DNA of 64,000 bases, taken from an uncultured Acidimicrobiia bacterium (GTDB lineage Bacteria; Actinomycetota; Acidimicrobiia; Spongiisociales; JAENVV01). Shown here in pieces: positions 1,366 through 30,648 of this stretch. A program made the translations under genes and the position numbers. Numbering within the stretch: position 1 is the first letter of the stretch; every line of letters starts with the position of its first letter. The stretch lies in contig CAWKAG010000056.1 of assembly GCA_963847455.1 (NCBI GenBank), positions 12,421 through 76,420 on the forward strand, given 5' to 3'. The notes below the pieces were generated by a model. It did no database searches and had not been told where the DNA came from. It saw nothing but the letters and a program-made list of their open reading frames with translations.

Positions 1366-2129
1366 TGCAACCCCTCACGTTGTCCTCGGGATTGTCCCCC
1401 GTAGCCGATCAGTTGGTCAGGCAGGTCGCTGACTGTCTGTCAGAAATCCTCGGACGGAGCGTTTTGTGGACCGATCAGCAAGTCCGGGAAGGCTGGTTAC
1501 GAGACAGCCAGACCGACCTACTGTGGGCCTGCGGATATCTCCACGCATCAAACCTCACCGTCGGATCGTGGCCTTACGCTGCCCTGGTGGCGCCGGTGAT
1601 GGCTGCAGAGCGCTACCGAGGACAACCCGTCTATTTTGGCGATGTGATCGTGCGTTCGAACGATTCTGTCGCGGCAATGGCAGCCCTGGCTCACCGGCGG
1701 TATGCCTTCAACGAGGTCGAATCGTTCTCCGGCTATCAAATGCTGCTCCGGTCTCAGCTGATTGCCGACGACCCGGAAAGGTGGCTCGCCGGCGGGATGC
1801 GTACGGGTTCACACCTTGCCTCTATCGACGCAGTAATCGATGGCTCAGCTGACTGGGCGGTCATCGACTCGACGATGCTTGACATGCAGGCCCACGCGGG
1901 CATCCGGGTGATCACGTCGATAGGTCCTCATCCTTCACCACCAATGCTGATTTCACGAGCATGCGACAACTCACTTCGCAGACAACTCTCGCAGGCTTTC
2001 AGTCAGCTCCATGCTGACGCGACAGCTCGAGTCCTTCTAGAGCAATGGAACGTCGCCTCATTCGTTGAGGTAGACGACCGCGACTATCTGAGTCTGCTTT
2101 CAGTCGGCGAGTCCAAGCTCACGCCTTAA
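1365..2129 (+). CDS. PhnD/PtxB-like phosphate/phosphite/phosphonate-binding fold protein, no signal peptide
   Basis: GTG at 1365 overlaps the upstream TAG. Motifs YFGDVIVR, AFNEVESFSG, TGSHLASIDAVIDGSADWAVIDS and GPHPSPP are typical of the PhnD family. Confidence 0.85.
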   Translation: MQPLTLSSGLSPVADQLVRQVADCLSEILGRSVLWTDQQVREGWLRDSQTDLLWACGYLHASNLTVGSWPYAALVAPVMAAERYRGQPVYFGDVIVRSNDSVAAMAALAHRRYAFNEVESFSGYQMLLRSQLIADDPERWLAGGMRTGSHLASIDAVIDGSADWAVIDSTMLDMQAHAGIRVITSIGPHPSPPMLISRACDNSLRRQLSQAFSQLHADATARVLLEQWNVASFVEVDDRDYLSLLSVGESKLTP

Positions 2130-3027
2130 CTGCCGGCACCGGACCGCGTCGGGAAATGACGTCTGGGTGCCTGGTCGAGTGACACTGTCGGACGCGCAGG
2201 CCATCGCCAGTTGCACCGCAGCAAGCTCGTCCAATCCGCTTGCCAGGCCGTGCGCAAAAGAACCAACAAATGCGTCTCCGGCTCCGGTTGTATCAACCGC
2301 ATCGACCCGGTCAGCCGACACCCTGCGAACCGCACCATCTTGGCCAACGAGGGCGACCCCCGCTTCGCCAAGGGTGACGATCAGCCGACAGCTGGTTTGG
2401 TCAGCAAAGGCCTTCAGAGCCGCATCGTCAAAAGGATCTCCACCTCCGATCAAAGCGAATTCGATCTCGTTGGGAATCAACCAGTCCGTCACCGCGAGCA
2501 GTCCGTCGGAGATCGGCGCGGCCAGGCGCAGGATTGAGGAGCGTCACGGTACCGTTCGATCTTGCTGCCTGAAAGGCGCTAGCTGTGACGAATTGGGGTA
2601 TCTCAAATTGCCCGATGACGATCGCTGCATCGGGATTCGCATCGACTCCTGCAGCGGCGTGTTCGGAGCTGAGGAGGTCGTTGGCGCCCGGAATGATGAT
2701 GATGCGATTGGTGCCGTCGGGTTCTACCCAAATAGGAGCGACGCCGGTCGAGCCGGCGGTCACATGAACGTGGGTCACATCGACCCCGAATTCGGTGAAA
2801 TTCTCGAGGTACATCTGACCGTACGGATCGTCCCCCAGGCAACTCACCATGTGCACGTTGCTGCCAAGCAGACGGGCCATAACGGCTTGATTGGCACCCT
2901 TACCGCCAAACCCCATCTGGAAGCGGTCGCCGACCACCGTCTCGCCGGCCTCCGGTACTCGCTGGGTATACGCAATCAGGTCGATATTTGTTGATCCGAC
3001 CACAACGATCTCGCTGGCACCAGGCAA
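2100..3027 (-). pseudogene. rbsK: Ribokinase, split by a +1 frameshift at about 2522 (probably a sequencing error)
   Basis: N-half has VVVGSTNIDL, GFGGKGANQA and LNPAP; C-half has DWLIPNEIE and VDTTGAGDAFVG. Removing one base restores LNPAPAAPISDGLLAVTDW. AGGAGG precedes a TTG at 3027. Confidence 0.92.
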
Positions 3028-3094
3028 CGAACGGCCTCCTCTCCGATGCACCCATCATCGCACACGCACTACCGTTCGAAGCCGTTGATCAAGG

Positions 3095-4099
3095 ATGGTT
3101 ATGGCAATAGGCGCATGGGATCGACCGGTCCTCCAGTCAATCCGTCCGGTCATCGCACAATCGGAATCAGTCAGGACAAACGCAGAGTCGATTGCGACGG
3201 TCGCACGATGGATGGCCTTTGAGGAGTTCACCTTTCCGACCGGAGCAAGCGCTGGTCCGTTTGCATTGGGAGCAACGCCGGATGAGATAATCGATTTTGT
3301 CATGCTGGCCTCGGCCTTGAACTTCGCGTTTACCGATTTCGAGTCCGGCACGAAATTCGAGGTCGACTACGACGGGCGGACGTGGTCGGACACCGAAGGT
3401 ATGTTTGTCCGGATCCACCAGGCTCTAGCGGCCGGAACCGACCTATGCGACGGATCCGTTATGGCGACGATCACGGCATCAGATCTCGCTCATGTTTTCT
3501 CCGGCAACATCGTGATGCCGATGCTTGAAGCGCGTGCCGACATCCTCAACTCGATCGGATCAGTCCTTGAAGACCGGTACGAGGGTCGATTCCACAAGTT
3601 TGTCGGCTCCTGCCCTCCCGCCATGTACGACGATGGTGACGGACTGTTGGAGCGACTCGTCGAAGAGTTCCCCCGATTCAACGACGCAAGTCCCTATCGG
3701 GGCGAGACGGTCCAACTGCACAAACTTGGTCAGTTGGCGCTCTGGTCGCTGCACATGGGCCTGCATGCGTCCGGTGACTGGGCGGTGCGCGATCTCTCCG
3801 ATATGACGGCCTTTGCGGACTACATCGTGCCGGTCGCGCTGCGCCTGATGGGTATCCTGGAATACTCCCCGGATCTTGAGCAACGCATAAAAGCAGGCAC
3901 GATGATCGCCGCCGATAGCCCGGATGAAGTTGAGATTCGCGCCCACACCCTCTATGCGACAGCGCTTCTGACCGATGCCATCAACGAACTACGACCCTCT
4001 GATCAACAATTGGTAATCCCGCAGGTCGACTATCGACTTTGGAAGACCTACCACGCCACGACCTGGCCGCACCATCTGACCGAAACAGTGATGTACTAG
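3095..4099 (+). CDS. qng1: Queuosine salvage glycosylase (DUF2419/Q_salvage, QNG1 homolog)
   Basis: Motifs ALNFAF, HKLGQL, AFADYIVPVAL..MGILEYS, EVEIRA, QVDYRLW and C-terminal HHLTETVMY match the DUF2419 family. Confidence 0.9.
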   Translation: MVMAIGAWDRPVLQSIRPVIAQSESVRTNAESIATVARWMAFEEFTFPTGASAGPFALGATPDEIIDFVMLASALNFAFTDFESGTKFEVDYDGRTWSDTEGMFVRIHQALAAGTDLCDGSVMATITASDLAHVFSGNIVMPMLEARADILNSIGSVLEDRYEGRFHKFVGSCPPAMYDDGDGLLERLVEEFPRFNDASPYRGETVQLHKLGQLALWSLHMGLHASGDWAVRDLSDMTAFADYIVPVALRLMGILEYSPDLEQRIKAGTMIAADSPDEVEIRAHTLYATALLTDAINELRPSDQQLVIPQVDYRLWKTYHATTWPHHLTETVMY

Positions 4100-4112
4100 G
4101 ACCGACCCTCGG

Positions 4113-5174
4113 TCAGAGGGAGATCTTGTATCCGCCCGCTTCTTCGTCCCACTCCATCGTCACAACCCCTTTGGTCTGAGCCGCTTTCATGAACTGTAGG
4201 AAGCTGCTGTAGCCGAACTGCTTTTCAGAAAAATGTGCGTCGCGTTTGCGCATCTGGTCCTTGAGCCCCGACAACATCACGGTGCCGTCCTTGGCAGTCT
4301 CGGCTATCACCTTTTTCATAAGGTCGAACGCAGCATCGGCCCCAGGGGAATCTGTTGGGAAGTCGATTTCAGGATCACCCTTCGCAGGACCTTCCGACAG
4401 TTCGATAACGCCGTTGTCGCCGAGGTACCGAAGCAGCTCTCCGAAGGCCCGGAACCCGTAGTTGGCTTCCGAAAAAGTCGGATCTTTTCGCAGGAGGGTG
4501 CGTTTCAGCTGGGACCCGAGAATGGTACCGCCGGCACTGCGTTTGAGGCCACCGACGGTCGTACTGACCAGTTTGGCCAGGTCGTCAAGACTTTCGCCCC
4601 CGGCGCCGGATGTCGGTGGTAGCTCTGGCGGTGTGACATCAGGGGCTGGGGGTGCCTGGCGCCGGGGAGTCCTGGGTTTGGCCGGCACCCCGGGTTCAAC
4701 CCCCTCAAGGGTCTCATAGAACAAAAACTCGTCGCAAGCTGGGGGAAGCAGGTTCGACGTGGACGCTCTGATCCCAACGCCGATCACTAGCTTGTTCAGC
4801 TCGCGGAGCTTATGGACGAGCGGAGTGAAGTCACTGTCACCTGTGCAGATGACGAACGTCGAAACATAGGAGCGCTCAAACGCCATCTCAAGCGCATCAA
4901 CTGCCATCTTGATGTCGGCAGCGTTCTTGCGCACGGTTCCCATGCGCTGCGGGATCTCAATCAACTCAACATGATGCCGGGTGAGCATGCGACGGTCTTC
5001 GTCGAAGAACGACCAGTCACCGTAGGCTTTCCGGGCGATAACTCTGCCTCGTTCGGCGAGTGCGTCGGCTACGGGACCAAAGTCGAAGGCGATTCCACCG
5101 AGGTCCTCTCTGGCTGAAATGGCCAGGTTCTCGTAGTCCATGAATAGGGCGATGCGTTGTTCTTCAATGGTCAC
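4113..5174 (-). CDS. NYN-domain (LabA/DUF88) RNase with two C-terminal OST-HTH/LOTUS domains
   Basis: NYN acidic motifs FMDYEN, KNAADIKMAVD and TGDSDF; LOTUS signatures FSEANYGFRAFGELL and FSEKQFGYSSFLQFM. Start set at GTG 5174. Confidence 0.9.
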   Translation of the reverse strand: MTIEEQRIALFMDYENLAISAREDLGGIAFDFGPVADALAERGRVIARKAYGDWSFFDEDRRMLTRHHVELIEIPQRMGTVRKNAADIKMAVDALEMAFERSYVSTFVICTGDSDFTPLVHKLRELNKLVIGVGIRASTSNLLPPACDEFLFYETLEGVEPGVPAKPRTPRRQAPPAPDVTPPELPPTSGAGGESLDDLAKLVSTTVGGLKRSAGGTILGSQLKRTLLRKDPTFSEANYGFRAFGELLRYLGDNGVIELSEGPAKGDPEIDFPTDSPGADAAFDLMKKVIAETAKDGTVMLSGLKDQMRKRDAHFSEKQFGYSSFLQFMKAAQTKGVVTMEWDEEAGGYKISL

Positions 5175-5325
5175 AGTCGAACGATAGACGTTTCGTCGCC
5201 CGGCGTAGACCCACAGTCGAATACTGGTATCGCTTCCTATCTGTGTTAGCGTTCTTGTCACCGCCGCACTGGAACGAGGTCTGCGCACGCGCGCACCCCG
5301 GTGAACTACGGCCTATTACTGGCAG

Positions 5326-5386
5326 AGAACGAAACCTCGAGTTCTTGCCTCTCGATCCTCGTGGGATACGGATTACGAGCGTCGAG
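5326..5386 (+). promoter_or_regulatory. Two-hairpin structured leader upstream of the DEAD-box helicase
   Basis: AGAAC(5326-5330)/GTTCT(5341-5345), and CTCGA-tc-CTCGT...ACGAG-cg-TCGAG (5351-5386). Confidence 0.45.
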
Positions 5387-5438
5387 CCTGACCAAACCGT
5401 ACCTGCCCGGTCTCAAACGATGAGATCAGAGGAGAAAC

Positions 5439-7001
5439 ATGACTACCTTCATCGACCTTGGCGTGCCCGCGCGCCTCGCAAAGCCTTTGGCGGCGCGATC
5501 TATCACCGAGGCGTTTCCAATCCAGGAAGCCGCCATTCCCGACCTAATGGCCGGACGAGACGTGCTCGGACGTGCCCCGACCGGTTCCGGCAAGACCCTG
5601 GCCTTCGGCCTGCCCCTCCTGGCCCGCGTCGAACGAGCCAAACCTAAGCTTCCCCGTGCACTGATACTGGCCCCAACCCACGAGTTGGCTGACCAAATCA
5701 GCAAAGAACTACTCCCCCTCGCCAAGGCCACCAACCGGTGGGTCCTGGCGATCTACGGTGGCGTGGGATATGACTTTCAACGCCGGCAACTGCGCCGCGG
5801 TGCTGACGTCGTCGTCGCAACACCCGGACGCCTCACCGACCTGATTGACGAAGGTTCGGTAAGTCTGGAGGACGTCGACATCGTTGTTCTCGACGAGGCT
5901 GATCGGATGGCCGACATGGGTTTCATGCCTCAGGTCAAGGTTCTGATGGACATGACCAACGCCAAGCGTCAGACCATCCTGTTCTCGGCGACGTTGGACA
6001 AGGACGTAGCCCAGCTAACGAAGGAATACCAGACCGATCCCGTCACCCACGAAGTTGAGGGTGACGAGAACGCCGGTGAGGCATCGCACTATTTCTGGCA
6101 GGTTGACAACCATCAGCGTGTCCAGATGACCGCCGAGATCATCGGCACCTCTACGCCGTCGATTGTCTTCACGCGGACCCGTCGTGGAGCCGATCGGGTC
6201 GCGCAGCAACTCGAGCGCGCCGGTGTCAACGCCGCCGCCATCCATGGTGGTCGCAGCCAGAACCAGCGAACTCGGGCGTTGAATGCCTTCACGAAGGGCA
6301 AAGTCCAGGCGCTCGTCGCCACAGACGTAGCTGCTCGTGGTATCCACGTTGACAATGTCGCAAGCGTCGTCCACTTCGACCTTCCCGAAGACCCGAAGGA
6401 TTACTTGCACCGTTCCGGTCGGACCGCTCGTGCCGGAGCCGATGGTGTCGTGGTCTCCTTCGTACTGGGAAACCAGATGGGTGATGCCAAGCGCCTGCAG
6501 AACTCCGTTGGGCTCAACACCGCCATGCATGATCCAGAAACTGACTGGTTGACCGGTGAATCCGGCGGCCGTATTGGAGATGCCCCGGTTGTCGAGCAAA
6601 AGGGCGGTGGTCAGAAACGCCGCCCGCAAGGCAATCGGAACGGTCAACGCCCGCACAATCGTCGTTCGAGTGGCGGTCATCAGGGCAACAGCGGACGAAC
6701 CCGTTCGGAGTCCAAGAGCCGCGACGGAAGCAACGATGCCCCGCGCGGCAACCGATCGCAGTCATCGGGGAGCACCCGAAACGCCGGCGCATCCCGCACC
6801 AGTGGCGCCGAGCGCGGTAATCGCTCAGAAAGCGGCAACAACGTAGACGGAAACCGTCGGACTTCACCGAATGACCGCGACGGCAACCAGCGGTCGAACA
6901 ATCGTGGCAAATCCGAAAGGACCGGCAACCGGGCGCAATCCGGGGGCTACAAGGGCAACAAGGGCAACAGGAGCAACCCCGGCAACCGCCGGAGCGCCTA
7001 A
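5439..7001 (+). CDS. DEAD-box RNA helicase (RhlE-like) with a long disordered R/G/N/S-rich tail
   Basis: Q motif (FPIQ), APTGSGKT, TPGRL, DEAD, SAT, VATDVAARGI and HRSGRTAR. GAGGAG RBS. Confidence 0.96.
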   Translation: MTTFIDLGVPARLAKPLAARSITEAFPIQEAAIPDLMAGRDVLGRAPTGSGKTLAFGLPLLARVERAKPKLPRALILAPTHELADQISKELLPLAKATNRWVLAIYGGVGYDFQRRQLRRGADVVVATPGRLTDLIDEGSVSLEDVDIVVLDEADRMADMGFMPQVKVLMDMTNAKRQTILFSATLDKDVAQLTKEYQTDPVTHEVEGDENAGEASHYFWQVDNHQRVQMTAEIIGTSTPSIVFTRTRRGADRVAQQLERAGVNAAAIHGGRSQNQRTRALNAFTKGKVQALVATDVAARGIHVDNVASVVHFDLPEDPKDYLHRSGRTARAGADGVVVSFVLGNQMGDAKRLQNSVGLNTAMHDPETDWLTGESGGRIGDAPVVEQKGGGQKRRPQGNRNGQRPHNRRSSGGHQGNSGRTRSESKSRDGSNDAPRGNRSQSSGSTRNAGASRTSGAERGNRSESGNNVDGNRRTSPNDRDGNQRSNNRGKSERTGNRAQSGGYKGNKGNRSNPGNRRSA

Positions 7002-7020
7002 CCCTCGAATCAACAATCTG

Positions 7021-7066
7021 GACCCGTGCTCGCGCCTATCAACAGGCCGGGCACGGGTCTTCTTGG
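7021..7066 (+). terminator. Rho-independent terminator after the helicase
   Basis: GACCCGTGCTCG...CGGGCACGGGTC stem followed by TTCTTGGTT. Confidence 0.75.
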
Positions 7067-7087
7067 TTAACTGCGCCGCACATCGAT

Positions 7088-7444
7088 CTACGGAGTCAGC
7101 CCGTCGAGAGCCCGACGCGTCCGGACAGGCAGTGATGCGACTACCAGCTCATACGAGTGCCCGATCCAATCGTCGAGTTCCCCGTCGGGGAGTTCGTCGA
7201 TAATCACGGTGTTCCAGTGCCGCTTGTTGAGGTGATATCCAGGCGTAACCTTGCCGGGAAACTCTTCCCGTAGATCCAGCGCCAGGTCGGGATCGCACTT
7301 GAGGGCGACCTGAGTTGGGTGGGCGTCCTCAGAGACGATGGCAAAGATCTTTCCGCCAACCTTCCAAACCTGTGCTCCCGGCCCGAACGGGTATCCAGGC
7401 TCGGCGCCCACGTACGATGACAACCGGCCTTGTAGATCCGACAT
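7088..7444 (-). CDS. MmcQ/YjbR-family DNA-binding protein
   Basis: YPFGP, VWKVGGKIFA, LKCDP and PGYHLNKRHWNTV. Confidence 0.93.
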   Translation of the reverse strand: MSDLQGRLSSYVGAEPGYPFGPGAQVWKVGGKIFAIVSEDAHPTQVALKCDPDLALDLREEFPGKVTPGYHLNKRHWNTVIIDELPDGELDDWIGHSYELVVASLPVRTRRALDGLTP

Positions 7445-19701: not shown

Positions 19702-19901
19702 GTCTTCCCCGGTCGCGATCGGAAACACCCTACAGCCCAATAGATCGGTATTGGGGTAACGGGTCACGCCAACGACTCACATGCCGTATGGCAGCACCAT
19801 TAATATCGGCGCTGAAACGGCCCACCTTGAGAACGTCATCGGCCGCATCTCGGGGGTTCTTGGGGCCCCAGCACCCGATAACGGGCAGTGGAACCCTGGG
19901 T

Positions 19902-21626
19902 TCAACCCTGGGTTGGTGGTGCCGCGCGGAGGTTGGACGTCGCCGACTCGTCGACCTCTCCATCGACGATCACGACCCCGTACATTTCCCGCGCCGCATC
20001 GAGGGACACGTAATCGCCGGCGACGTCCTCGGCTACTTTGGCCGGATCACGGTCGAACGGATTCCCATGGCCGCCGCCTCCGGGGAGGCCCAGATATAAC
20101 GAATCTCCCGGTGGGATGGACTGCTGGCCCTTGCCGCGCAACCGGGTACCAGAACCAAGTTCCACCCGGGTTGGCAGACCCGCTCCCCCACCGTCGCGTC
20201 CAAACGCCGGATTGTCGACCTTTTCGTATTGGGCAAGCACATCAAACGGCATGCCATCAGTACCCATCAATTCGATGTCCTGACCAAGGCCACCCCGATA
20301 CTTCCCCGCCCCACCCGAGTCCTGGCGGAGTTCTTTTCTCAGAAAAACGATTGGAACGATGGCCTCGGTCGCTTCGACCGGGACCCCTCGGACGCCGTTC
20401 GGGAAGCCGGTGGCGCTCAGGCCATCTTTCGCCGGACGAGCCCCCATACCTCCATTGTTGAAGTGCATCATCTCGAACTCAACAACTTCTCCCACATAGT
20501 CACCGGCGACTGAAGACCCTCCTCGCAGCTGCAGGTTCGCCAGGGCGCTGGAACTCTCCGCCAGGGCCCCACCAGGTAGGACTGGATGGAGTGCGCCGAT
20601 CACCGTGTCCGGAAGCAGGTGCCCGATAATGTGCCGCAGCGCAACTGGCGCCGGACGTTGCACATTGAGAATGCAGTCCTCCGGGGCGGTGACCTGGAGT
20701 GGCTCCATGGATCCAGCGTTGTTGGGAATGTCCGGAGCTACTACGCACTTGATGCCGTACGTCGTATAGGCCTTCGTGTAGTTGAGCACGACGTTGATGC
20801 CATACGTGCTCGGCTTCGAGGTGCCGGCATAGTCGACCAGGATGGTGTCGTCTGAGACCGTCACCGCCGCCTGGAGCGTTATGGGATGCTCGTAGCCATC
20901 CATGGTCACCGAGTTGTGATAGGTACCGTTCGGCAGGGCAGCAATCCGTTTGATCGTTGCCGCCCGTGAACTTTCGATGATGAACTCGGCCAGGTCGCCC
21001 AGATCATCGATGTCGAACTCATTCATCATGTCGACCATCCGTTGGGCACCGACCTCGTTACCTCCGGCGAATGCGAAAATATCCCCCACCACTTGATTCG
21101 CTTCCCGGACGTTCATCCGAATTATCTCGATCAGCGTTTCATTCAACTCGCCAGCTCGGTAGAGGTGAAGGATCGGAATGTCCAGTCCCTCTTCGTAGAT
21201 TTGGCGGCTGTCCGGTGTGAAACCTCTCCCGCCGATGTCGACTACGTGGCAGGTATTGGCCACGAGACCAACGGCACGACCTTTGAAAAAGAACGGCGTA
21301 ACCAGGGTGATGTCGTTGTGATGGCCCGACGCCAACCAGGGATCGTTCGTGAGCAAGACATCGCCAGGAACCATGGTGTCTATTGGGTGCTTGGACAAAA
21401 AGTGCTTCACGCATTCGGCTACCGAGTTGATATGACCGGGCGTGCCCGTGATCGCCTGAGCCAGCATCCGCCCCTGCCGGTCGAACACCGCCGCGGCGAG
21501 ATCACCCGCTTCCCTGACCGAGGTCGAAAAGGCCGTCCGAATCAGGGCTTGGGCTTCTTCCTCGACGACGGCGATGAGCCGATTCCACATGATGTGATTA
21601 TGAATCCGGGTGAGTGCATCACTCAT
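19902..21626 (-). CDS. hyuB: Hydantoinase B / oxoprolinase beta subunit
   Basis: TAFSTSVREAGD, PGDVLLTNDPW..SGHHND, HVVDIGG, VEATE, GGAGKYRGGLG and PGGGGHG. Confidence 0.93.
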   Translation of the reverse strand: MSDALTRIHNHIMWNRLIAVVEEEAQALIRTAFSTSVREAGDLAAAVFDRQGRMLAQAITGTPGHINSVAECVKHFLSKHPIDTMVPGDVLLTNDPWLASGHHNDITLVTPFFFKGRAVGLVANTCHVVDIGGRGFTPDSRQIYEEGLDIPILHLYRAGELNETLIEIIRMNVREANQVVGDIFAFAGGNEVGAQRMVDMMNEFDIDDLGDLAEFIIESSRAATIKRIAALPNGTYHNSVTMDGYEHPITLQAAVTVSDDTILVDYAGTSKPSTYGINVVLNYTKAYTTYGIKCVVAPDIPNNAGSMEPLQVTAPEDCILNVQRPAPVALRHIIGHLLPDTVIGALHPVLPGGALAESSSALANLQLRGGSSVAGDYVGEVVEFEMMHFNNGGMGARPAKDGLSATGFPNGVRGVPVEATEAIVPIVFLRKELRQDSGGAGKYRGGLGQDIELMGTDGMPFDVLAQYEKVDNPAFGRDGGGAGLPTRVELGSGTRLRGKGQQSIPPGDSLYLGLPGGGGHGNPFDRDPAKVAEDVAGDYVSLDAAREMYGVVIVDGEVDESATSNLRAAPPTQG

Positions 21627-23703
21627 CGCGAGCCTCCATGACGATATGACCGCTGTCCGCAATGGTGGCCGTGAATGAACGGGTCACCATGGTGGAAGTG
21701 TTCGCTTCAACGATCACGGCCGGCCCTTCGACTCTGTCCCCCGGGGAGAGGTTTGCGCGCACGAACAGACCGGCTTGCACAACCGTGCCTGACTCAGCAT
21801 CCATCACTCCTCTGGTGTCAGAAGCGACCTCCGTTTGGGTCGACTCCACGGGAGGTTGCAGGGCAACCGCCGGGACGCCGGTCGAAACCGTGAGGACCCA
21901 GCTGAGAATCTCAACATCGACACCCGGGATCGCCCGTCCATACAACCGCTCGTATTCGCCCTCGTAAGCGGCCAGGAATGCAGCCGGGGAAGCTTCGTCA
22001 ACGATGGTTGCTTCGATGCTGATCGGCAATTCCACTCCGACCTCGTGGCCCTGTCCGATGTAGCGCATGTAGGCCAGGCGCGATTCCTGGAGGTCCTGGC
22101 CGGGTGCCCCGGCCAGAACGATTGGAGTCGCCTCGGCCCGCATGGCATCGAGGAGGGCATTCACTCCGACGGCATCAAGCGAACTGAGTCGCTGGTGATA
22201 GGTACGCGTGACTTCGTACGCCACCGGGGCTCGGAGAAATCCGATCGCTGAACCAACTCCTGCACCCGGGGGGATGACGACACGTCGGATCGCCAGTTTC
22301 TCTGCGAGTCGTGCGGCGTGAAGTGGGGCCGCTCCGCCAAAAGCAATCATGGTCTTTGTTTCGACCCGCTGGCCACTCTCGACGGTGTGAACCCTGGCCG
22401 CATTGGACATGTTTTCGTCGACAATCTCAGCCACACCAAGCGCCGAGTTCATCGCGTCGAGATCCAACGGTATGCCGACGGTCCTCAGCAGCGCTTCGGC
22501 TGCCGCAGATGCGTCGAGTGGCATGCGTCCGTCGGCGAAGTTGTCCGGATCGATCTTGCCGAGCACGACATCGGCATCAGTGACGGTCGGCGCCGACCCA
22601 CCTAGGCCGTAGGCAACCGGGCCGGGATCCGAACCGGCGCTTTCGGGGCCAACCGCAATCCGACCCATGGCGTCGAGGTGTGCAATCGATCCGCCTCCGG
22701 CACCGATCTCCACCATCTCGATGACCGGAATTCGTAACGGCAGGCCACTACCTCGCATGAAGCGGTACATGCGGGCAACTTCGAACGATCGGGAGGTCTG
22801 GGGGTGACCGTTCTGGATGAGACAGATTTTGGCGGTGGTCCCACCCATGTCGTAGGAGAGAACGTCGTCATAACCGAGCTGACGTGCAATCGATCCTGCG
22901 AAGATCGCGCCGCCTGCTGGGCCGGACTCAACCAGCCGAACCGGGAAACGACGGGCCGTGTCCAGGGTGGTCAAGCCTCCGCCGGACAGCATGAGGTGGA
23001 GCGGGCACCGCAGACCGATTCTTTCAAGCTCACTGGCCAGGCCGTCAAGGTGGCGACTCATGAGCGGTTGGACATAAGCGTTGGCGCAAGCCGTTGAGAT
23101 CCGTTCGAACTCGCGCATTTCAGGCGACACTTCGCTCGAGAGGCTGATTTCTACGCCAGGAAGTAGTCCAGCAAGAATCTCCCCCGCTCGTTGTTCGTGG
23201 GCGGCGTTGATGTAGCTGTGGAGAAATCCGACCGCCACAGCCTTGACGTCGGCCCCCCGCAACCGCTGAGCGGCGTCGGCCACGTCGCTTTCGTCGAGCG
23301 GGATCAGAATCCGTCCCCGGGCATCAATACGTTCGGTGATTGGCCGCCGCAAGCGGCGAGGCACCAGAGGAGGCGGCAGGTCAATGTTGACGTCGTACTG
23401 TTCGTACCGGTTCTCGTTGCGCATCTCGACGGAATCACGAAAGCCTCGGGTGGTGAGCAGGCCAGTCGCCGAGCCCTTTCGTTCGATGAGCAAGTTGGTG
23501 GCAAGGGTCGTGCCGTAAATCACCTGTGTCACTTCACTGGCATCTACGCTCGCCGTCTCAACAACCTCGGCGATGCCATCGACCACCCCACGTTCTGGTG
23601 CGTCGTGGGTCGTAAGCGTCTTGGCTGCGAAGAGCTCCTCGCCGCGCTCAAGGGCGACGTCCGTAAACGTCCCCCCGATATCCACCGCGATCCGCGTCGT
23701 CAC
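21619..23703 (-). CDS. hyuA: Hydantoinase A / oxoprolinase alpha subunit (ATP-dependent)
   Basis: VDIGGTFTD, GTTLATN, ESGPAGG, DMGGTTAKI, IGAGGGSI, PESAGSDPGP and AFGGAAPLH. Confidence 0.95.
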   Translation of the reverse strand: MTTRIAVDIGGTFTDVALERGEELFAAKTLTTHDAPERGVVDGIAEVVETASVDASEVTQVIYGTTLATNLLIERKGSATGLLTTRGFRDSVEMRNENRYEQYDVNIDLPPPLVPRRLRRPITERIDARGRILIPLDESDVADAAQRLRGADVKAVAVGFLHSYINAAHEQRAGEILAGLLPGVEISLSSEVSPEMREFERISTACANAYVQPLMSRHLDGLASELERIGLRCPLHLMLSGGGLTTLDTARRFPVRLVESGPAGGAIFAGSIARQLGYDDVLSYDMGGTTAKICLIQNGHPQTSRSFEVARMYRFMRGSGLPLRIPVIEMVEIGAGGGSIAHLDAMGRIAVGPESAGSDPGPVAYGLGGSAPTVTDADVVLGKIDPDNFADGRMPLDASAAAEALLRTVGIPLDLDAMNSALGVAEIVDENMSNAARVHTVESGQRVETKTMIAFGGAAPLHAARLAEKLAIRRVVIPPGAGVGSAIGFLRAPVAYEVTRTYHQRLSSLDAVGVNALLDAMRAEATPIVLAGAPGQDLQESRLAYMRYIGQGHEVGVELPISIEATIVDEASPAAFLAAYEGEYERLYGRAIPGVDVEILSWVLTVSTGVPAVALQPPVESTQTEVASDTRGVMDAESGTVVQAGLFVRANLSPGDRVEGPAVIVEANTSTMVTRSFTATIADSGHIVMEARDE

Positions 23704-25754: not shown

Positions 25755-26360
25755 ATGGAAGGCGCCACCACCAAAACGGGACCGCTCGCGTACCTGTCGC
25801 TTGGAGTCGCTCTCATTGCGGTGGGCCTCTTTCACGCAGGCTTCTTCGAGTTCGGCGCCCTGGCGCCCATCATCGCCCTAATCGCCGGGGCTTCCTTGCT
25901 TCTCGCGAACACAGCAGAAACGAGATCAGGACACGGGACTGAACTTGCGGCCTTCGGCCTCCTTGGCATGTTTTGGATCTCGCAGAGTGCGATCTGGGCC
26001 GTCGACCTGTTCGGCGTCCAGCCACCACTCGATCGCCAGTACGTCGGCTGGTACCTCGGTCTGTGGTCGGTGATCGGCGCGGTTCTGTTGGCGGCGCACC
26101 GGAAACGAGGGTTGGTGGTGCAGGTCGTGCTGGCGCTAATCACCGTATGGTTCATTCTCAACGCCGCGGCCGAATTCACGGGCGGGCCGATCGTTACACA
26201 GATGGCGGGATTCGAAGGCCTCATCTCAGGGCTACTGTCGATGTACTTGGGTGCGGCGCTGCTTATCAATGAGGGAGCCATGCGTGAGGTTCTGCCTCTT
26301 GGAGAACCGCGTCTTTCCAAGATCATCATTCCCGACGACATCAGCCAACTATTTGACTGA
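25755..26360 (+). CDS. satP: GPR1/FUN34/YaaH (SatP) acetate/carboxylate channel
   Basis: About 6 TM helices; AFG.LG.FW, AG..GLISG..SMY.G.A.LINE and C-terminal VLPLG. GGAAGGAG RBS. Confidence 0.8.
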   Translation: MEGATTKTGPLAYLSLGVALIAVGLFHAGFFEFGALAPIIALIAGASLLLANTAETRSGHGTELAAFGLLGMFWISQSAIWAVDLFGVQPPLDRQYVGWYLGLWSVIGAVLLAAHRKRGLVVQVVLALITVWFILNAAAEFTGGPIVTQMAGFEGLISGLLSMYLGAALLINEGAMREVLPLGEPRLSKIIIPDDISQLFD

Positions 26361-27233
26361 TAACAGCTTGGACAAACGCTGATTGGTGTCGTCGATATCT
26401 GCCGAGAGTGCCGTCAATGGCGGGCGAACCCGATTCCAACCCTCGTGACCGCTTACCTCGGACAGCCAATGCTTCATCGTCGGGATCGTTCCCCCCGCCT
26501 CGATAATGGACCGCACCTCAAGCATCACTAAATCGTCAATCGAGCCGTTGTTGCGCTGCTCCCAGACCGCCCTGATAACGGCCGGTGCGATATTGGCGGT
26601 GGCGGTGATGACACCAGTCGCGCCATGCCTGGCCCCTTCGATCATGAGTCGTTCGGTTCCCGGAAGAACCGCCAAGCCCTCGACGCTGGTGAAGCCGTGA
26701 AGACTGCTGATCTGTCCACTCGAGTCTTTCAGGCCGATCAGGTTGCCGGCGAATTCTTCGCGAATGGCGGCAATGATGGCCGGCGTGATCGGGACCATCG
26801 ATAACCCAGGGAAGTGATAGAGGTAAAGGCGTAGATCCGCGCCGATCGCCTCGCACAGTGCCGTGTATCCACGAGCCACGCCGCCATCTGAAACGCCCTT
26901 GAAGAAATACGGCGGGACCACGAGAACACCCCGCACACCCATTTCGGTGGCATGGTGAGACAATTCGGCCGTATCGGGAAAAGCTGCGCAGCCGGTACCC
27001 ACGACGATCTGCCCGGTCGGAACGCCACCGTCGACCAACGCCTCGAGGGCCCCAGCGCGCTCTGAGACCGAAAACGACGGAGCCTCACCCGTCGAACCAA
27101 ACAGCACGATGCCATCGCAGCCCGATGCGAGTAGCCCCACACAGTGGTCCACCAGCAGCTTGTGGTCGATGTTCAAAGCTTCGGTAAGTGGCGTCAGGGT
27201 CGGAGCCCAAACGCCCGTCATGGGTGCAGTCAT
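26349..27233 (-). CDS. DHDPS/DapA-like class I aldolase family protein (substrate unknown)
   Basis: FGSTGE, LYHFP and LKDSSG (Schiff-base Lys). Confidence 0.9.
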   Translation of the reverse strand: MTAPMTGVWAPTLTPLTEALNIDHKLLVDHCVGLLASGCDGIVLFGSTGEAPSFSVSERAGALEALVDGGVPTGQIVVGTGCAAFPDTAELSHHATEMGVRGVLVVPPYFFKGVSDGGVARGYTALCEAIGADLRLYLYHFPGLSMVPITPAIIAAIREEFAGNLIGLKDSSGQISSLHGFTSVEGLAVLPGTERLMIEGARHGATGVITATANIAPAVIRAVWEQRNNGSIDDLVMLEVRSIIEAGGTIPTMKHWLSEVSGHEGWNRVRPPLTALSADIDDTNQRLSKLLSVK

Positions 27234-27366
27234 GGTCCGAATCTACCGGTTGTTGGGGCTGAACGCCCGCACCTGACATCGTCACGGCCCAAGAGCAGGC
27301 ATTCGGCGTTGGTCCCAAGACTGTTCGGAGTACATCGACCGGTCAGGAGTGGCACAATCCTGGTCC

Positions 27367-28677
27367 ATGATCGAGCGAAGACACCGACCGAAGATCGGAA
27401 GCGGGCACCCTGCCGGTGACTCGACCCTTGACTTCGGCGACCTGAACCTCCACGCCCTTGGACCGGGCGACCAACTGACGTCCGAGTGGGCTGCCGCCGG
27501 ATTAGCGCTCCCCGACCGACCCAAGATTCGAGCCTACCGGCTCGAACGGATCCGCCAGCAGCTCCGCTCGGCCGGTTGCGACGGAATTCTGCTTTATGAC
27601 CCAATCAACATCCGTTACGCCACCGACACCACGAACATGTCTATCTGGACGATGCACAACCAGGTCCGGTACGTGTTCGTGCCGACCGCTGGACCGGTGG
27701 TCCTATTCGAGTTCTCCAAAGGCGAGTTTCTCGACACCCATTCGGAAGTCGTCGACGAGATCCGTCCCGCCACGTCATTCATCTACTTCTACGCGGGGAA
27801 TCGCCATGAGGAGATCGCTGGCCGGTGGGCCAACGAGATCGTTGACCTGCTTGGCGACTACGGGGGCGGTGACCTGCGCCTGGCGATCGATCAACTCGAA
27901 CTCGATGGCATCCGGGCTCTTGAAGGGCTGGGCGTAACATTGGTCAATGGCCAGCTCCTGATGGAAGAAGCCAGGGTCATCAAGTCGGACGACGAGATCG
28001 TCGCCATGCGGTGTGCGGTCCATGCTTGCGAAGCAGCTGTCGCAGACATGCGCGCCGTCTTCGAGCCTGGCGTCACGGAGATGGCGCTGTGGGCGAGCTT
28101 GCAGGAGGCGAACTTCCGCCGATATGGGGAATGGATCGAAACCCGCCTTCTTGCCTCAGGACCACGCACGAATCCCTGGTACCAGGAAGCCTCCAGCCGC
28201 GTTATCCAACCCGGTGACCTGGTCGGATTCGACACCGACCTCATCGGGGCGTTCGGGATGTGCGTAGATATGTCACGGACCTGGCTGGCGGGGACCACGA
28301 AACCAACCGGTCAGCAGGCGACAACCTTTGCAATGGCCAATGAACAGATCGAACGGAACACGGAGTTGCATCGGCCCGGGGTAACTTTTGAGGAGCTCAC
28401 GTTTAAGTCGTGGTATCCCCAGATCGACAAATTCAACTTCTACACGTGTTTATCCCATGGCGTCGGGCTCTGCGATGAGTACCCGACCATCGTTGTACGC
28501 GAATCCTGGGACTCAACAGGTTATGACGGCGTCCTCCAACCGGGCATGGTGATGTGCGTGGAGAGCTTCGTCGGCCCCAAGCACGGTGGAGAAGGCGTCA
28601 AACTCGAACAACAAGTCCTGATCACCGAGACCGGCAATGAGCTTCTCACCCGTTATCCCACGGGCCTGACCAACTAG
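27367..28677 (+). CDS. dddP: DMSP lyase DddP (M24 metallopeptidase fold)
   Basis: DddP-specific blocks EWAAAGLALPD, NIRYATDTTNM, DEIVAMRCAVHACE, GEWIETRLLASGPRTNPWYQE, FDTDLIG, HGVGLCDEYP and KLEQQVLITETG. Confidence 0.88.
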   Translation: MIERRHRPKIGSGHPAGDSTLDFGDLNLHALGPGDQLTSEWAAAGLALPDRPKIRAYRLERIRQQLRSAGCDGILLYDPINIRYATDTTNMSIWTMHNQVRYVFVPTAGPVVLFEFSKGEFLDTHSEVVDEIRPATSFIYFYAGNRHEEIAGRWANEIVDLLGDYGGGDLRLAIDQLELDGIRALEGLGVTLVNGQLLMEEARVIKSDDEIVAMRCAVHACEAAVADMRAVFEPGVTEMALWASLQEANFRRYGEWIETRLLASGPRTNPWYQEASSRVIQPGDLVGFDTDLIGAFGMCVDMSRTWLAGTTKPTGQQATTFAMANEQIERNTELHRPGVTFEELTFKSWYPQIDKFNFYTCLSHGVGLCDEYPTIVVRESWDSTGYDGVLQPGMVMCVESFVGPKHGGEGVKLEQQVLITETGNELLTRYPTGLTN

Positions 28678-28696: not shown

Positions 28697-29192
28697 TCAT
28701 GCCAACGGCATAACAACCGGCCCGTGATCGACCGCTTCGAGAAACTTCATCAGATCCGCGGGGGCGATGGTCGTCGTCTGATCATTGACAAGCGGATGGA
28801 AATTGAGAAGCGACTCGGCCAACAATGCCTCGTCAACCACGACATGCACACGCCGATCAGCGTCGTTCATCACAGCGAACGGCGTAACCGCCCCTGGCAG
28901 AACGCCCAGGTGCGCCATGAGTCGTTCCGGACTCCCGAACGATACGCGACCCGCCCCGATTCGGTCCCCGAGGTCCTTCAGGTCGAGTACCCGATCCTCC
29001 GGACAGACCACCAACCACATATGTCCCTTCTTGTTGCGAAGAAACAGGTTCTTACAGTGACCGCCCGGTAGGTCCCCCCGGAGCGCCTTGGAGTCTTCCA
29101 CGGTGTAAAGGGGCGGATGGTTGACGGTTGTCGTGGCGATGCCCAATCCTTCGAGATACGCAATCAGGCCGTCCGGGAGATTCGCTGCTCAT
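28697..29192 (-). pseudogene. ProX/YbaK-type prolyl-tRNA editing domain protein, +1 frameshift at about 29175 (probably a sequencing error)
   Basis: HPPLYTVE, GGHCKNLFL, LGVLPGAVTPFA and FHPLVN. ATG 29192 overlaps the upstream TGA (ATGA); removing one base gives MSSESPDGLIAYLEGLGI. Confidence 0.88.
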
Positions 29193-29611
29193 CCGAGGAC
29201 GGCTCGACCGGTTTCATCGAAAGCTACGCCTCCGGAGGCCACTTCCCAGATGTGCCCGTCGGGATCCTTGAAATACCCCGAATACCCGCCCCACTCTGCC
29301 CGCTGGGGGTGCTTGAAGACGAGCGCACCGGCCCGGGCGGCCGCCGCTATGAAGTCGTCGACGGCCTCCGGGGAAGCGACGTTATGGGCGAGGGTGACCA
29401 TCGACCCACCGGGCGGCGGTACCTCTATGCCCATATCGGCCGCCAGATCCTCGTTGGTGACCAGTCCCAACGCCAGCGAGTAGCCGGCCTGCACGAAAAC
29501 GACGGTGTCAAGATCTGCGATGAGTTCAAAACCGAGACCATCGCAGTAGAAACGCCGGGACGTCGCCACATCGCCGACACCAAGTGAAACCAGGTGGACC
29601 TGCTGTTTCAT
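29189..29611 (-). CDS. VOC/glyoxalase-family protein
   Basis: VSLGVGDV..SRRFY..GLG, LAHNV and WGGYSGYFKDPDGHIWEVA. Confidence 0.92.
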   Translation of the reverse strand: MKQQVHLVSLGVGDVATSRRFYCDGLGFELIADLDTVVFVQAGYSLALGLVTNEDLAADMGIEVPPPGGSMVTLAHNVASPEAVDDFIAAAARAGALVFKHPQRAEWGGYSGYFKDPDGHIWEVASGGVAFDETGRAVLG

Positions 29612-30648
29612 GCGAACGTGATCACACTCGTGCCAAGCTGGCCGAACGATCCCATCGACGGCAACTCCTCCGGAACTTCGTCCAGGGTGAGCGTCTTCCC
29701 GACGAGGCGTGCCGGATTCACTTTGCCCTCCTCGATGAGCGAAAAAATGTCCGCATACCCGGTGGCTGGCATTCCATGACTGCCGTAGATCTCGAGCTCA
29801 AGCGATATGACCCGGCTCATCGGAATCGGCAGATTGATACCCGCTTCCAACACAAGACCAATCTGAACATGTCGGCCCCGCTTGGCAAGACACCGGATCG
29901 AGTTCTGGGCCGTCACAGCTGAGCCGAGAGCATCCACCGAAATCTGAGCTCCCCCGCCTGACGCTTCCCGAATGACGTTCACTGGCTTTTCGCGGATCGC
30001 GTTCACCACCACGTCGGCGCCTAGTTCAGTCGCCAGTGCAAGTTTGTCGTCGTCAAGGTCGACCGCGATTACCCGGGCACCGAACGCTTTCGCAACCTGA
30101 ATGGCCGAGAGTCCCACTCCGCCGGTTCCGTGCACCGCCACCCATTCCCCTGCCTGAATGTTCGCCCGATCCGTTAGCCCGTGATAGGCCGTCATGAACC
30201 GGCATCCGAGTGCCGCGGCAGCCACGAAATCAATACTGTCGGGAAGCCGAACAACGTTGAAGTCAGCCCAGGGTACTTGGACGAAGTCCGCCATCGACCC
30301 CCACCCGGAAAACCCCGGTTGGTACTCGTTGTCGCAGATGTTGCCGAATCCGGCCGAACACGCACCACAAACCCCACATCCGCACGAGAAGGGAATCACC
30401 ACCCGGTCGCCGACCGCCCAGCCAGTCACTTCCGATCCGACACGAGCGATCACCCCAGCCATTTCATGACCGGGTACGTGAGGAAGTTTGATCGACGGGT
30501 CGTGTCCCATCCATCCGTGCCAATCACTCCGGCAGACGCCGTTGGCTCGCACCTCGATCACGACACCGTGGGCGAGCGGCTCGGGCCGGGCGACCATCTC
30601 GACTGTCAACGGGCCCTGAAAATCCTTGTACGTCACAGCTCGCATCAT
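29608..30648 (-). CDS. Zinc-dependent alcohol dehydrogenase (MDR family)
   Basis: GVCRSD, GHE, structural Zn site CGCGVCGAC..G..NIC, LGCRFMTAY and GTGGVG. Confidence 0.95.
   Translation of the reverse strand: MMRAVTYKDFQGPLTVEMVARPEPLAHGVVIEVRANGVCRSDWHGWMGHDPSIKLPHVPGHEMAGVIARVGSEVTGWAVGDRVVIPFSCGCGVCGACSAGFGNICDNEYQPGFSGWGSMADFVQVPWADFNVVRLPDSIDFVAAAALGCRFMTAYHGLTDRANIQAGEWVAVHGTGGVGLSAIQVAKAFGARVIAVDLDDDKLALATELGADVVVNAIREKPVNVIREASGGGAQISVDALGSAVTAQNSIRCLAKRGRHVQIGLVLEAGINLPIPMSRVISLELEIYGSHGMPATGYADIFSLIEEGKVNPARLVGKTLTLDEVPEELPSMGSFGQLGTSVITFA

Follow-up and report, generated by a model that had tools for sequence, protein, structure and literature searches.

The locus analysed here raises the question of whether an actinobacterium carries a working gene for the cleavage of dimethylsulfoniopropionate (DMSP). 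The gene lies on the forward strand at 27367..28677 of a 64,000-nucleotide stretch of DNA, which we call the window (assembly GCA_963847455.1, contig CAWKAG010000056.1), and a preliminary description had named its product DddP, the lyase that converts DMSP to dimethyl sulfide (DMS) and acrylate. The actinobacterial host assumed there is correct, the genome being that of an uncultured, marine-type member of the Acidimicrobiia. The open reading frame is a genuine full-length gene for a DddP-family M24 enzyme with an intact active site, and, judging from sequence comparison, we consider it likely that the protein acts as a DMSP lyase.

The open frame extends over 27349..28677 (+), with an ATG at 27367 that yields a protein of 436 amino acids and an alternative GTG start upstream at 27349. 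Read from the ATG, the N-terminus (MIERRHRPKIG...) aligns with the starts of the homologues (MxxxRHRPKIG), and we therefore accept 27367-28677, the coordinates given originally. The product combines a creatinase-type N-domain (Creatinase_N, PF01321) with a Peptidase_M24 pita-bread domain (PF00557), which, at about 440 residues, is the architecture required of the DddP family. Its best NCBIfam model is the DddP equivalog NF043017 (452.1 bits, E 1.9e-135, model positions 19-438 of 443); the runner-up family, PepQ, scores 49 bits. Among solved structures the only strong matches are the Ruegeria lacuscaerulensis DddP (RlDddP) entries 4rzy, 4s00 and 4s01, all at about 1e-113 (4rzy at E 1.7e-113), and the Roseobacter denitrificans enzyme (RdDddP, 4b28, E 6e-105). 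BLASTP over the full length gives 45.6% identity with RlDddP and 42.2% with RdDddP. An identical copy of the window protein was not found in the contig index searched. An AlphaFold2 monomer model, built with 50 homologues as input, has a mean predicted local distance difference test score of 88.6 and a predicted template modelling (TM) score of 0.90. Its top four matches in the PDB are all DddP entries (TM 0.88, E about 1e-48); the next matches are prolidases, creatinase and the ectoine hydrolase DoeA, at TM 0.62-0.71 with E-values no better than 1e-24.

The active site of DddP is well defined in the literature. In RdDddP a binuclear iron centre is held by Asp295, Asp297, Asp307, His371, Glu406 and Glu421, and Tyr366 and Asp377 sit above the metals, with Asp377 the favoured base (PMC4108388). 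A conserved Trp and Tyr bind the sulfonium (PMC5395565), and Ala substitution of the six metal ligands abolishes activity of the Roseovarius nubinhibens enzyme, RnDddP (PMC10989825). We took the roles of the pocket residues from a review, the mutant structures in the PDB and the published work on RdDddP, and checked the RlDddP numbering against our alignment; 4s00 (Y366A) and 4s01 (D377N) mark both catalytic columns directly. All six ligands are present in the window protein: D289 and D291 in FDTDLIG (28231..28239, +; D289-T290-D291 corresponding to the Asp295 and Asp297 pair), D301 in CVDMSR (28267..28269, +; Asp307), H364 (His371), and E399 in CVES and E414 in KLE (28561..28608, +; Glu406 and Glu421). 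The Trp95 equivalent is W94, with its codon at 27646..27648 (+). Y359 (Tyr366), H364 and D370, the last corresponding to the proposed catalytic base Asp377, all fall within FYTCLSHGVGLCDE (28441..28476, +), where H364 and D370 share the motif HGVGLCDEYP. Thus the motif blocks on which the preliminary description was built (D-T-D, CVDMSR, HGVGLCD, CVES and KLE) are all there and align with the RlDddP and RdDddP residues.

These nine active-site residues are invariant in our alignment across 50 relatives of 58-95% identity. In distant M24 relatives (33-47% identity) the Asp377 column is often occupied by V, G, I, N or Y, or the Asp297 column by Gly, and the complete residue set is therefore not a trivial feature of the family at large. 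As a separate observation, dinoflagellate proteins named 'DddP' by UniRef (the P0296 / P0171 cluster, Cladocopium goreaui) have Gly at the Asp377 column and fall outside the canonical clade, and in their case the name may be over-extended.

Phylogeny, which the preliminary description had proposed as a check, gives a divided answer. The tree input was the window protein, 80 named genome loci, 50%-identity cluster representatives and two crystallised DddPs, with two M24 paralogues from the window genome as the outgroup. The 80 loci were the best-matching ones, and Roseobacter genomes are not among them; the trees left out O. doudoroffii DddP1 and DddP2, the fungal DddPs, the scallop symbiont HWgs001 and non-functional DddP references. 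A quick tree of 118 rows and a careful maximum-likelihood tree of 72 rows agree. In the latter, the window protein shares with RlDddP and RdDddP a clade of 46 rows (ultrafast bootstrap 95, SH-aLRT 93), every one of them with the complete catalytic set, and to that extent the check supports the DddP assignment; the window protein nevertheless sits in a sub-branch different from that of the two crystallised enzymes, one in which no ratified member was placed. Three groups make up the clade. The canonical one holds RlDddP, RdDddP, a SAR116-type protein and some gammaproteobacteria (100/100), the second is Rhizobiales-rich, with Mesorhizobium, Roseibium and Ahrensia (100/99), and the third, to which the window protein belongs, is rich in Actinomycetota (27 rows, 89/63). 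Its closest companions form a clade of 13 rows (100/100) made up of Acidimicrobiales, Ca. Aldehydirespirator, Ca. Poriferisodalis and two Arenicellales-type gammaproteobacteria. Another genome of the same order has two tandem DddP-like genes (G031:C42:24863-27468), each 51-52% identical to the window protein.

Scores on NF043017 track the structure of the tree. RlDddP reaches 890 bits, followed by two of the sampled loci, L085 (630) and L038 (610), and by the SAR116 type (605.5). Below 600 bits come L079 (563), P0124 (530), Ahrensia (509), Mesorhizobium (477) and L077 (460), and lowest are the window protein (452), Ilumatobacter (449), L016 (394) and the distant groups (300-331). The cut-off of the model seems to have been drawn just below the SAR116 type, and a score beneath it places the window protein outside the curated core but is not proof of inactivity.

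On the reading that we favour, the product would be a soluble member of the DddP family with a di-metal, Fe-type centre, probably acting as a homodimer. The DMSP carboxylate would be bound by the binuclear centre formed by D289, D291, D301, H364, E399 and E414, and the sulfonium would be held by W94 and Y359. D370 would then abstract the alpha-proton, and beta-elimination would release DMS and acrylate. DddP is a homodimer whose interface shapes the substrate tunnel. The degree of divergence seen here is compatible with such activity elsewhere in the family: functional fungal DddPs are reported at similar or lower identity to RdDddP (A. oryzae 50%, F. graminearum cc19 32%; PMC4108388), and a functional DddP from a scallop symbiont is reported to be 55% identical to O. 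doudoroffii DddP2 (PMC10989825).

Several observations weigh against this reading. The 452 bits of the window protein fall short of the curated equivalog cut-off of 600 bits, and no experimentally ratified enzyme was placed in the 27-row Actinomycetota-rich branch in either tree; homologue searches from the representatives P0177 and P0197 returned only proteins named 'Xaa-Pro peptidase' (Leisingera, SAR324, Rubrobacter). Seven canonical-group proteins agree throughout at 120 columns; at 46 of these the window clade differs or varies, and some of the 46 adjoin W95 or fall in loops 259 and 282-283. Across the wider clade, including soil Mesorhizobium and sludge Microthrix, the DddP-like gene is often the last in an operon with genes for a methyltransferase of the MttB type and a protein resembling dimethylglycine dehydrogenase (DMGDH). 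An intact copy is missing in all seven other species of the genus, in which the gene has been lost repeatedly. Because of the sub-cut-off score, the branch without a ratified member and the MttB/DMGDH links, the flat label 'DMSP lyase' used in the preliminary description goes beyond the evidence, even though the family and the catalytic residues it named are right.

The rest of the genome, which the preliminary description had suggested searching for acuI, prpE and dmdA, also provides points on that side. The assembly comprises 2.97 Mb in 84 contigs and is 86% complete, so that the absences reported from it are provisional. AcuI/YhdH was not found in it (best scores 103 bits on TIGR02823 and 63 bits on NF051456, with cut-offs of 297 and 440 bits, respectively, and a zinc-free medium-chain dehydrogenase/reductase (MDR) expected), nor was DmdA (best 104-106 bits, cut-off 410), nor were DddL and a carrier of the BCCT family. 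What the search did find, on contig C12, is a PrpE-like ligase that is separate from a clear Acs; its scores on the two PrpE models, 725 and 695 bits, do not reach the respective cut-offs. If the enzyme does release acrylate, it would do so from a monocistronic gene without a coupled, dedicated acrylate pathway, and the acrylate would need to be activated elsewhere, for instance by this ligase, and then pass through generic enoyl-CoA enzymes. The genome also has one OpuAC-type binding protein.

The alternative that best survives these data is a DddP-like enzyme acting as a lyase or hydrolase on another onium or zwitterionic osmolyte, with the same di-metal and Asp-base chemistry and little or no natural production of DMS. 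Candidate substrates would be a quaternary-amine analogue of DMSP or a betaine-type demethylation intermediate. We regard this as unlikely, though far from negligible, and one argument for it comes from gene order. When the neighbours at the 80 loci were clustered and the recurrent clusters annotated, one same-strand row stood out: an MTTB-family methyltransferase (PF06253), then a DMGDH-like protein with DAO, FAO_M and GCV_T domains, then the DddP-like gene. The row occurs at L027, L031, L055, L057, L069, L071 and L084 (at about 1700-7300 in each), and also at L016, L039, L077 and L078. It is typical of the Rhizobiales group and is found in Actinomycetota members as well (L039, L075, L077, L078 and L016), the last of which belongs to the window protein's own 13-row clade. 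A PF02574 homocysteine S-methyltransferase is often close by, as are a PhnD-like binding protein and a fatty-acid desaturase. Moreover, the hosts include soil and wastewater taxa, in whose habitats DMSP is scarce, and known DddPs show a very high Km for DMSP, 14-17 mM (PMC5395565).

The window genome itself has MTTB and DMGDH-like genes elsewhere: two MTTB-family frames (G000:C7:38532-39872 and G000:C63:54193-55677, both on the minus strand) and several genes resembling DMGDH or sarcosine dehydrogenase. The frame on C7 has one in-frame TGA, and the one on C63 adjoins a DMGDH-like gene. However, the window gene is not itself beside a gene of either kind. An MTTB gene also adjoins L085, a DddP that passes the NF043017 cut-off used in NCBI's annotation pipeline, so that lyases cannot be told from non-lyases by this association. 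In addition, the base Asp is strictly conserved, as are the Trp and Tyr that bind the sulfonium, and we know of no case in which an alternative substrate has been shown for the DddP family.

We found no paper in a literature search that links DddP with MttB in the operon sense. The association suggests a tie to quaternary-amine catabolism, and with it a possible substrate other than DMSP, but it is not decisive; the catabolism of betaine and that of DMSP could simply share genomic islands. That the Actinomycetota-rich sister branch as a whole consists not of DMSP lyases but of di-metal enzymes carrying out beta-elimination or hydrolysis on another onium osmolyte, linked to MttB and DMGDH, is an idea that we put forward as doubtful. 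A different context was seen in the sponge-symbiont subclade (L008 2274-16730, Ca. Poriferisodalis type), in which the DddP-like gene lies amid four CoA_transf_3 genes, an enoyl-CoA hydratase and a MOSC protein, together with an acyl-CoA carboxylase pair and an acyl-CoA dehydrogenase; this would fit acrylate or propionate handling as well as carnitine-type chemistry.

The history of the locus bears on whether the gene is still of use to the cell. A close homologue occurs in only five of 61 related genomes, and the seven other species of the genus all lack one; the flanking genes are syntenic in four congeners. In the closest of these (G006, about 89% amino-acid identity in the neighbour genes), the slot between the genes for a DHDPS-like (dihydrodipicolinate synthase) aldolase and a YbaK-type protein is reduced to 194 bp (L111, G006:C113, 4405-4598). 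What this gap still holds is a decayed copy of the last 135 bp or so, at 73% identity and with indels; a deletion has removed about 1.29 kb. In G005 the slot contains a CNNM/CorC-type gene and then, just before YbaK, a stub for the first 37 or so residues (MTQGRHRPKIGAG...HALGPG; L112, G005:C18, 8112-8264), and in G001 and G002 the CNNM/CorC gene only. This CNNM/CBS/CorC_HlyC transporter gene thus occupies the slot in three congeners (L112 6403-7659, L113 6479-7720 and L114 9151-10392). No close copy of it was found in the window genome, in which the best matches are paralogues of 28-31% identity on contigs C61 and C65. Since a 3' stub and a 5' stub lie at the same slot in two species, the gene was present in the ancestor of at least three species, and it has been truncated independently at least twice within the genus. 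A recent horizontal insertion into the window genome was considered and rejected, both because the GC and GC3 (third-position GC) of the gene are those of the neighbouring genes and because of the stubs at the same site in the two congeners.

The window copy could itself be a degenerating remnant that has ceased to matter to the cell, as the loss of an intact copy from every congener and the stubs in G006 and G005 might suggest. We nevertheless think this very improbable, given an intact frame, all catalytic residues kept, a base composition like that of the neighbours, and a ratio of nonsynonymous to synonymous substitution (dN/dS) of 0.13 against a 95%-identical copy from another sample. The gene is under purifying selection in the window genome, yet dispensable in sister species. 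Least credible of all is the reading as a conventional M24B enzyme, either Xaa-Pro peptidase or aminopeptidase P, which the public names of the homologues ('Xaa-Pro peptidase family' or 'aminopeptidase P family') and the two Pfam domains could be taken to imply. The models for PepQ and aminopeptidase P reach 44-49 bits, compared with 452 for DddP, and the fit to prolidase structures (TM 0.65, E 1e-24) is far poorer than that to DddP structures. The protein also has two hallmarks of DddP, namely the additional ligand of the Asp297 type and the Trp/Tyr/Asp377 set, and RlDddP is inactive on Val-Pro (PMC5395565).

Upstream of the DddP-like gene, across a divergent intergenic region of 133 bp (27234..27366, +) that presumably holds its own promoter, lies the DHDPS/DapA-family aldolase-like gene (26349..27233, -), which borders the variable slot on the left and is conserved in congeners whether or not they carry the DddP-like gene. 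The 20 bp or so of the intergenic region nearest to this gene are conserved in G006; a sigma-70 consensus was not found in the region, and a scan for promoters and terminators gave nothing usable. Downstream, the convergent gene for a YbaK/ProX-type tRNA_edit domain protein (28697..29146, -) forms the right edge, as judged from its domain match and synteny. Both flanking genes are on the opposite strand, and the DddP-like gene is therefore monocistronic.

Within about 10 kb we noted genes for hydantoinase A and B, two glyoxalase-fold proteins, a DinB-like protein, threonine aldolase, an AceTr/SatP channel, a Zn-dependent MDR dehydrogenase, a cysteine-desulfurase-like protein, a major facilitator superfamily carrier and a member of the ornithine-cyclodeaminase family. 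The hydantoinase genes form a B/A pair of the oxoprolinase or N-methylhydantoinase type (19900-23703, -), some 4 kb upstream of the DddP-like gene. Domain and family scans found no known DMSP or acrylate gene in this interval, in agreement with the preliminary description, which had seen no acrylate-disposal gene nearby. A stand-alone position with no acrylate genes at hand is usual for dddP.

The two neighbours that had been put forward as possible handlers of acrylate are themselves correctly identified. The SatP-type channel (25755..26360, +) scores 90 bits on the AceTr/SatP model NF038013, for which the cut-off is 50. The MDR gene (29608..30648, -) encodes an alcohol dehydrogenase-like protein with ADH_N and ADH_zinc_N domains, the catalytic C/H/E ligands and the structural zinc motif CxCxxCxxCx7C, and at 51 bits on TIGR02823, far below the 297-bit cut-off, it is not AcuI, just as had been stated; it is, however, two genes away from the DddP-like gene rather than directly adjacent to it. 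The role in acrylate handling suggested for the pair finds no support. Both hold the same position in congeners without the DddP-like gene, and we therefore reject a functional tie between it and either of them; the same applies to the DHDPS-like gene, which is likewise syntenic in such congeners.

The presence of a dddP-type gene in this class is not new. Zheng et al. (2020) reported dddP in metagenome-assembled genomes (MAGs) of Acidimicrobiia from the Mariana Trench, with Actinobacteria included in DddP groups III and IV (PMC7494906), and a 2026 Southern Ocean study also credits Acidimicrobiia with dddP (PMC13280387). The novelty is accordingly low, and that implied by the preliminary description was overstated. 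The survey rules (PMC7494906) accept either a hidden Markov model (HMM) match of E<=1e-50 plus tree curation or at least 40% identity with 70% coverage to a ratified DddP, and the window protein passes them (E<=1e-50; 40% identity, 70% coverage). The surveyed genes, reported as present or absent, come from the same host class, and we infer that they belong to the clade of the window protein. As of a 2018 report there was no ratified ddd gene from a Gram-positive bacterium, and our literature search did not find a later ratification of an actinobacterial DddP.

DMS is a climate gas, and the activity of this branch matters for how its sources are counted. An active branch would tie DMS release by Actinomycetota to a concrete gene. 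Should the branch not act on DMSP, a large set of genes is being miscounted under the current survey thresholds (40% identity, HMM E<=1e-50), and if its members act on another onium compound, surveys would overstate the DMS-producing potential of both Acidimicrobiia and Rhizobiales. Either outcome would calibrate gene counts for the DMS cycle. The gene alone adds little, similar ones being already in MAG surveys, and we believe the most useful by-products of the analysis to be the repeated decay of the gene at this locus within the genus and the MttB-DMGDH-DddP-like operon of its relatives.

Finally, the window protein can be set beside the systems that it most resembles. DddP (EC 4.4.1.3) is known from R. 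lacuscaerulensis (4RZY, 4RZZ, 4S00 and 4S01), Roseobacter denitrificans (4B28), Roseovarius nubinhibens and R. pomeroyi. With these characterised enzymes the window protein has in common the two-domain M24 architecture, the length, 42-46% identity, a TM of 0.88, the six ligands, the Trp95/Tyr366/Asp377 set and a stand-alone gene. It departs from them in its score of 452 bits, its position in an Actinomycetota-rich branch, the 46 of 120 canonical-invariant columns that differ or vary in its clade, and its N-terminal 30 residues, which carry a clade-specific RHRPKIG...HALGPG pattern. The Rhizobiales DddP-like genes of Mesorhizobium, Roseibium and Ahrensia are closer, at 51-56% identity, and share with it a supported clade, the full catalytic set and a sub-cut-off score (477-509 bits); unlike the window gene, which stands alone, they are in operons with genes for quaternary-amine demethylation. 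Prolidase/PepQ, creatinase (which has no metal centre) and DoeA share the pita-bread fold and the creatinase-type N-domain with the window protein, but they are only 17-25% identical to it, with a TM of about 0.65-0.70, and the DddP set of Trp, Tyr and Asp377 occurs in none of them.

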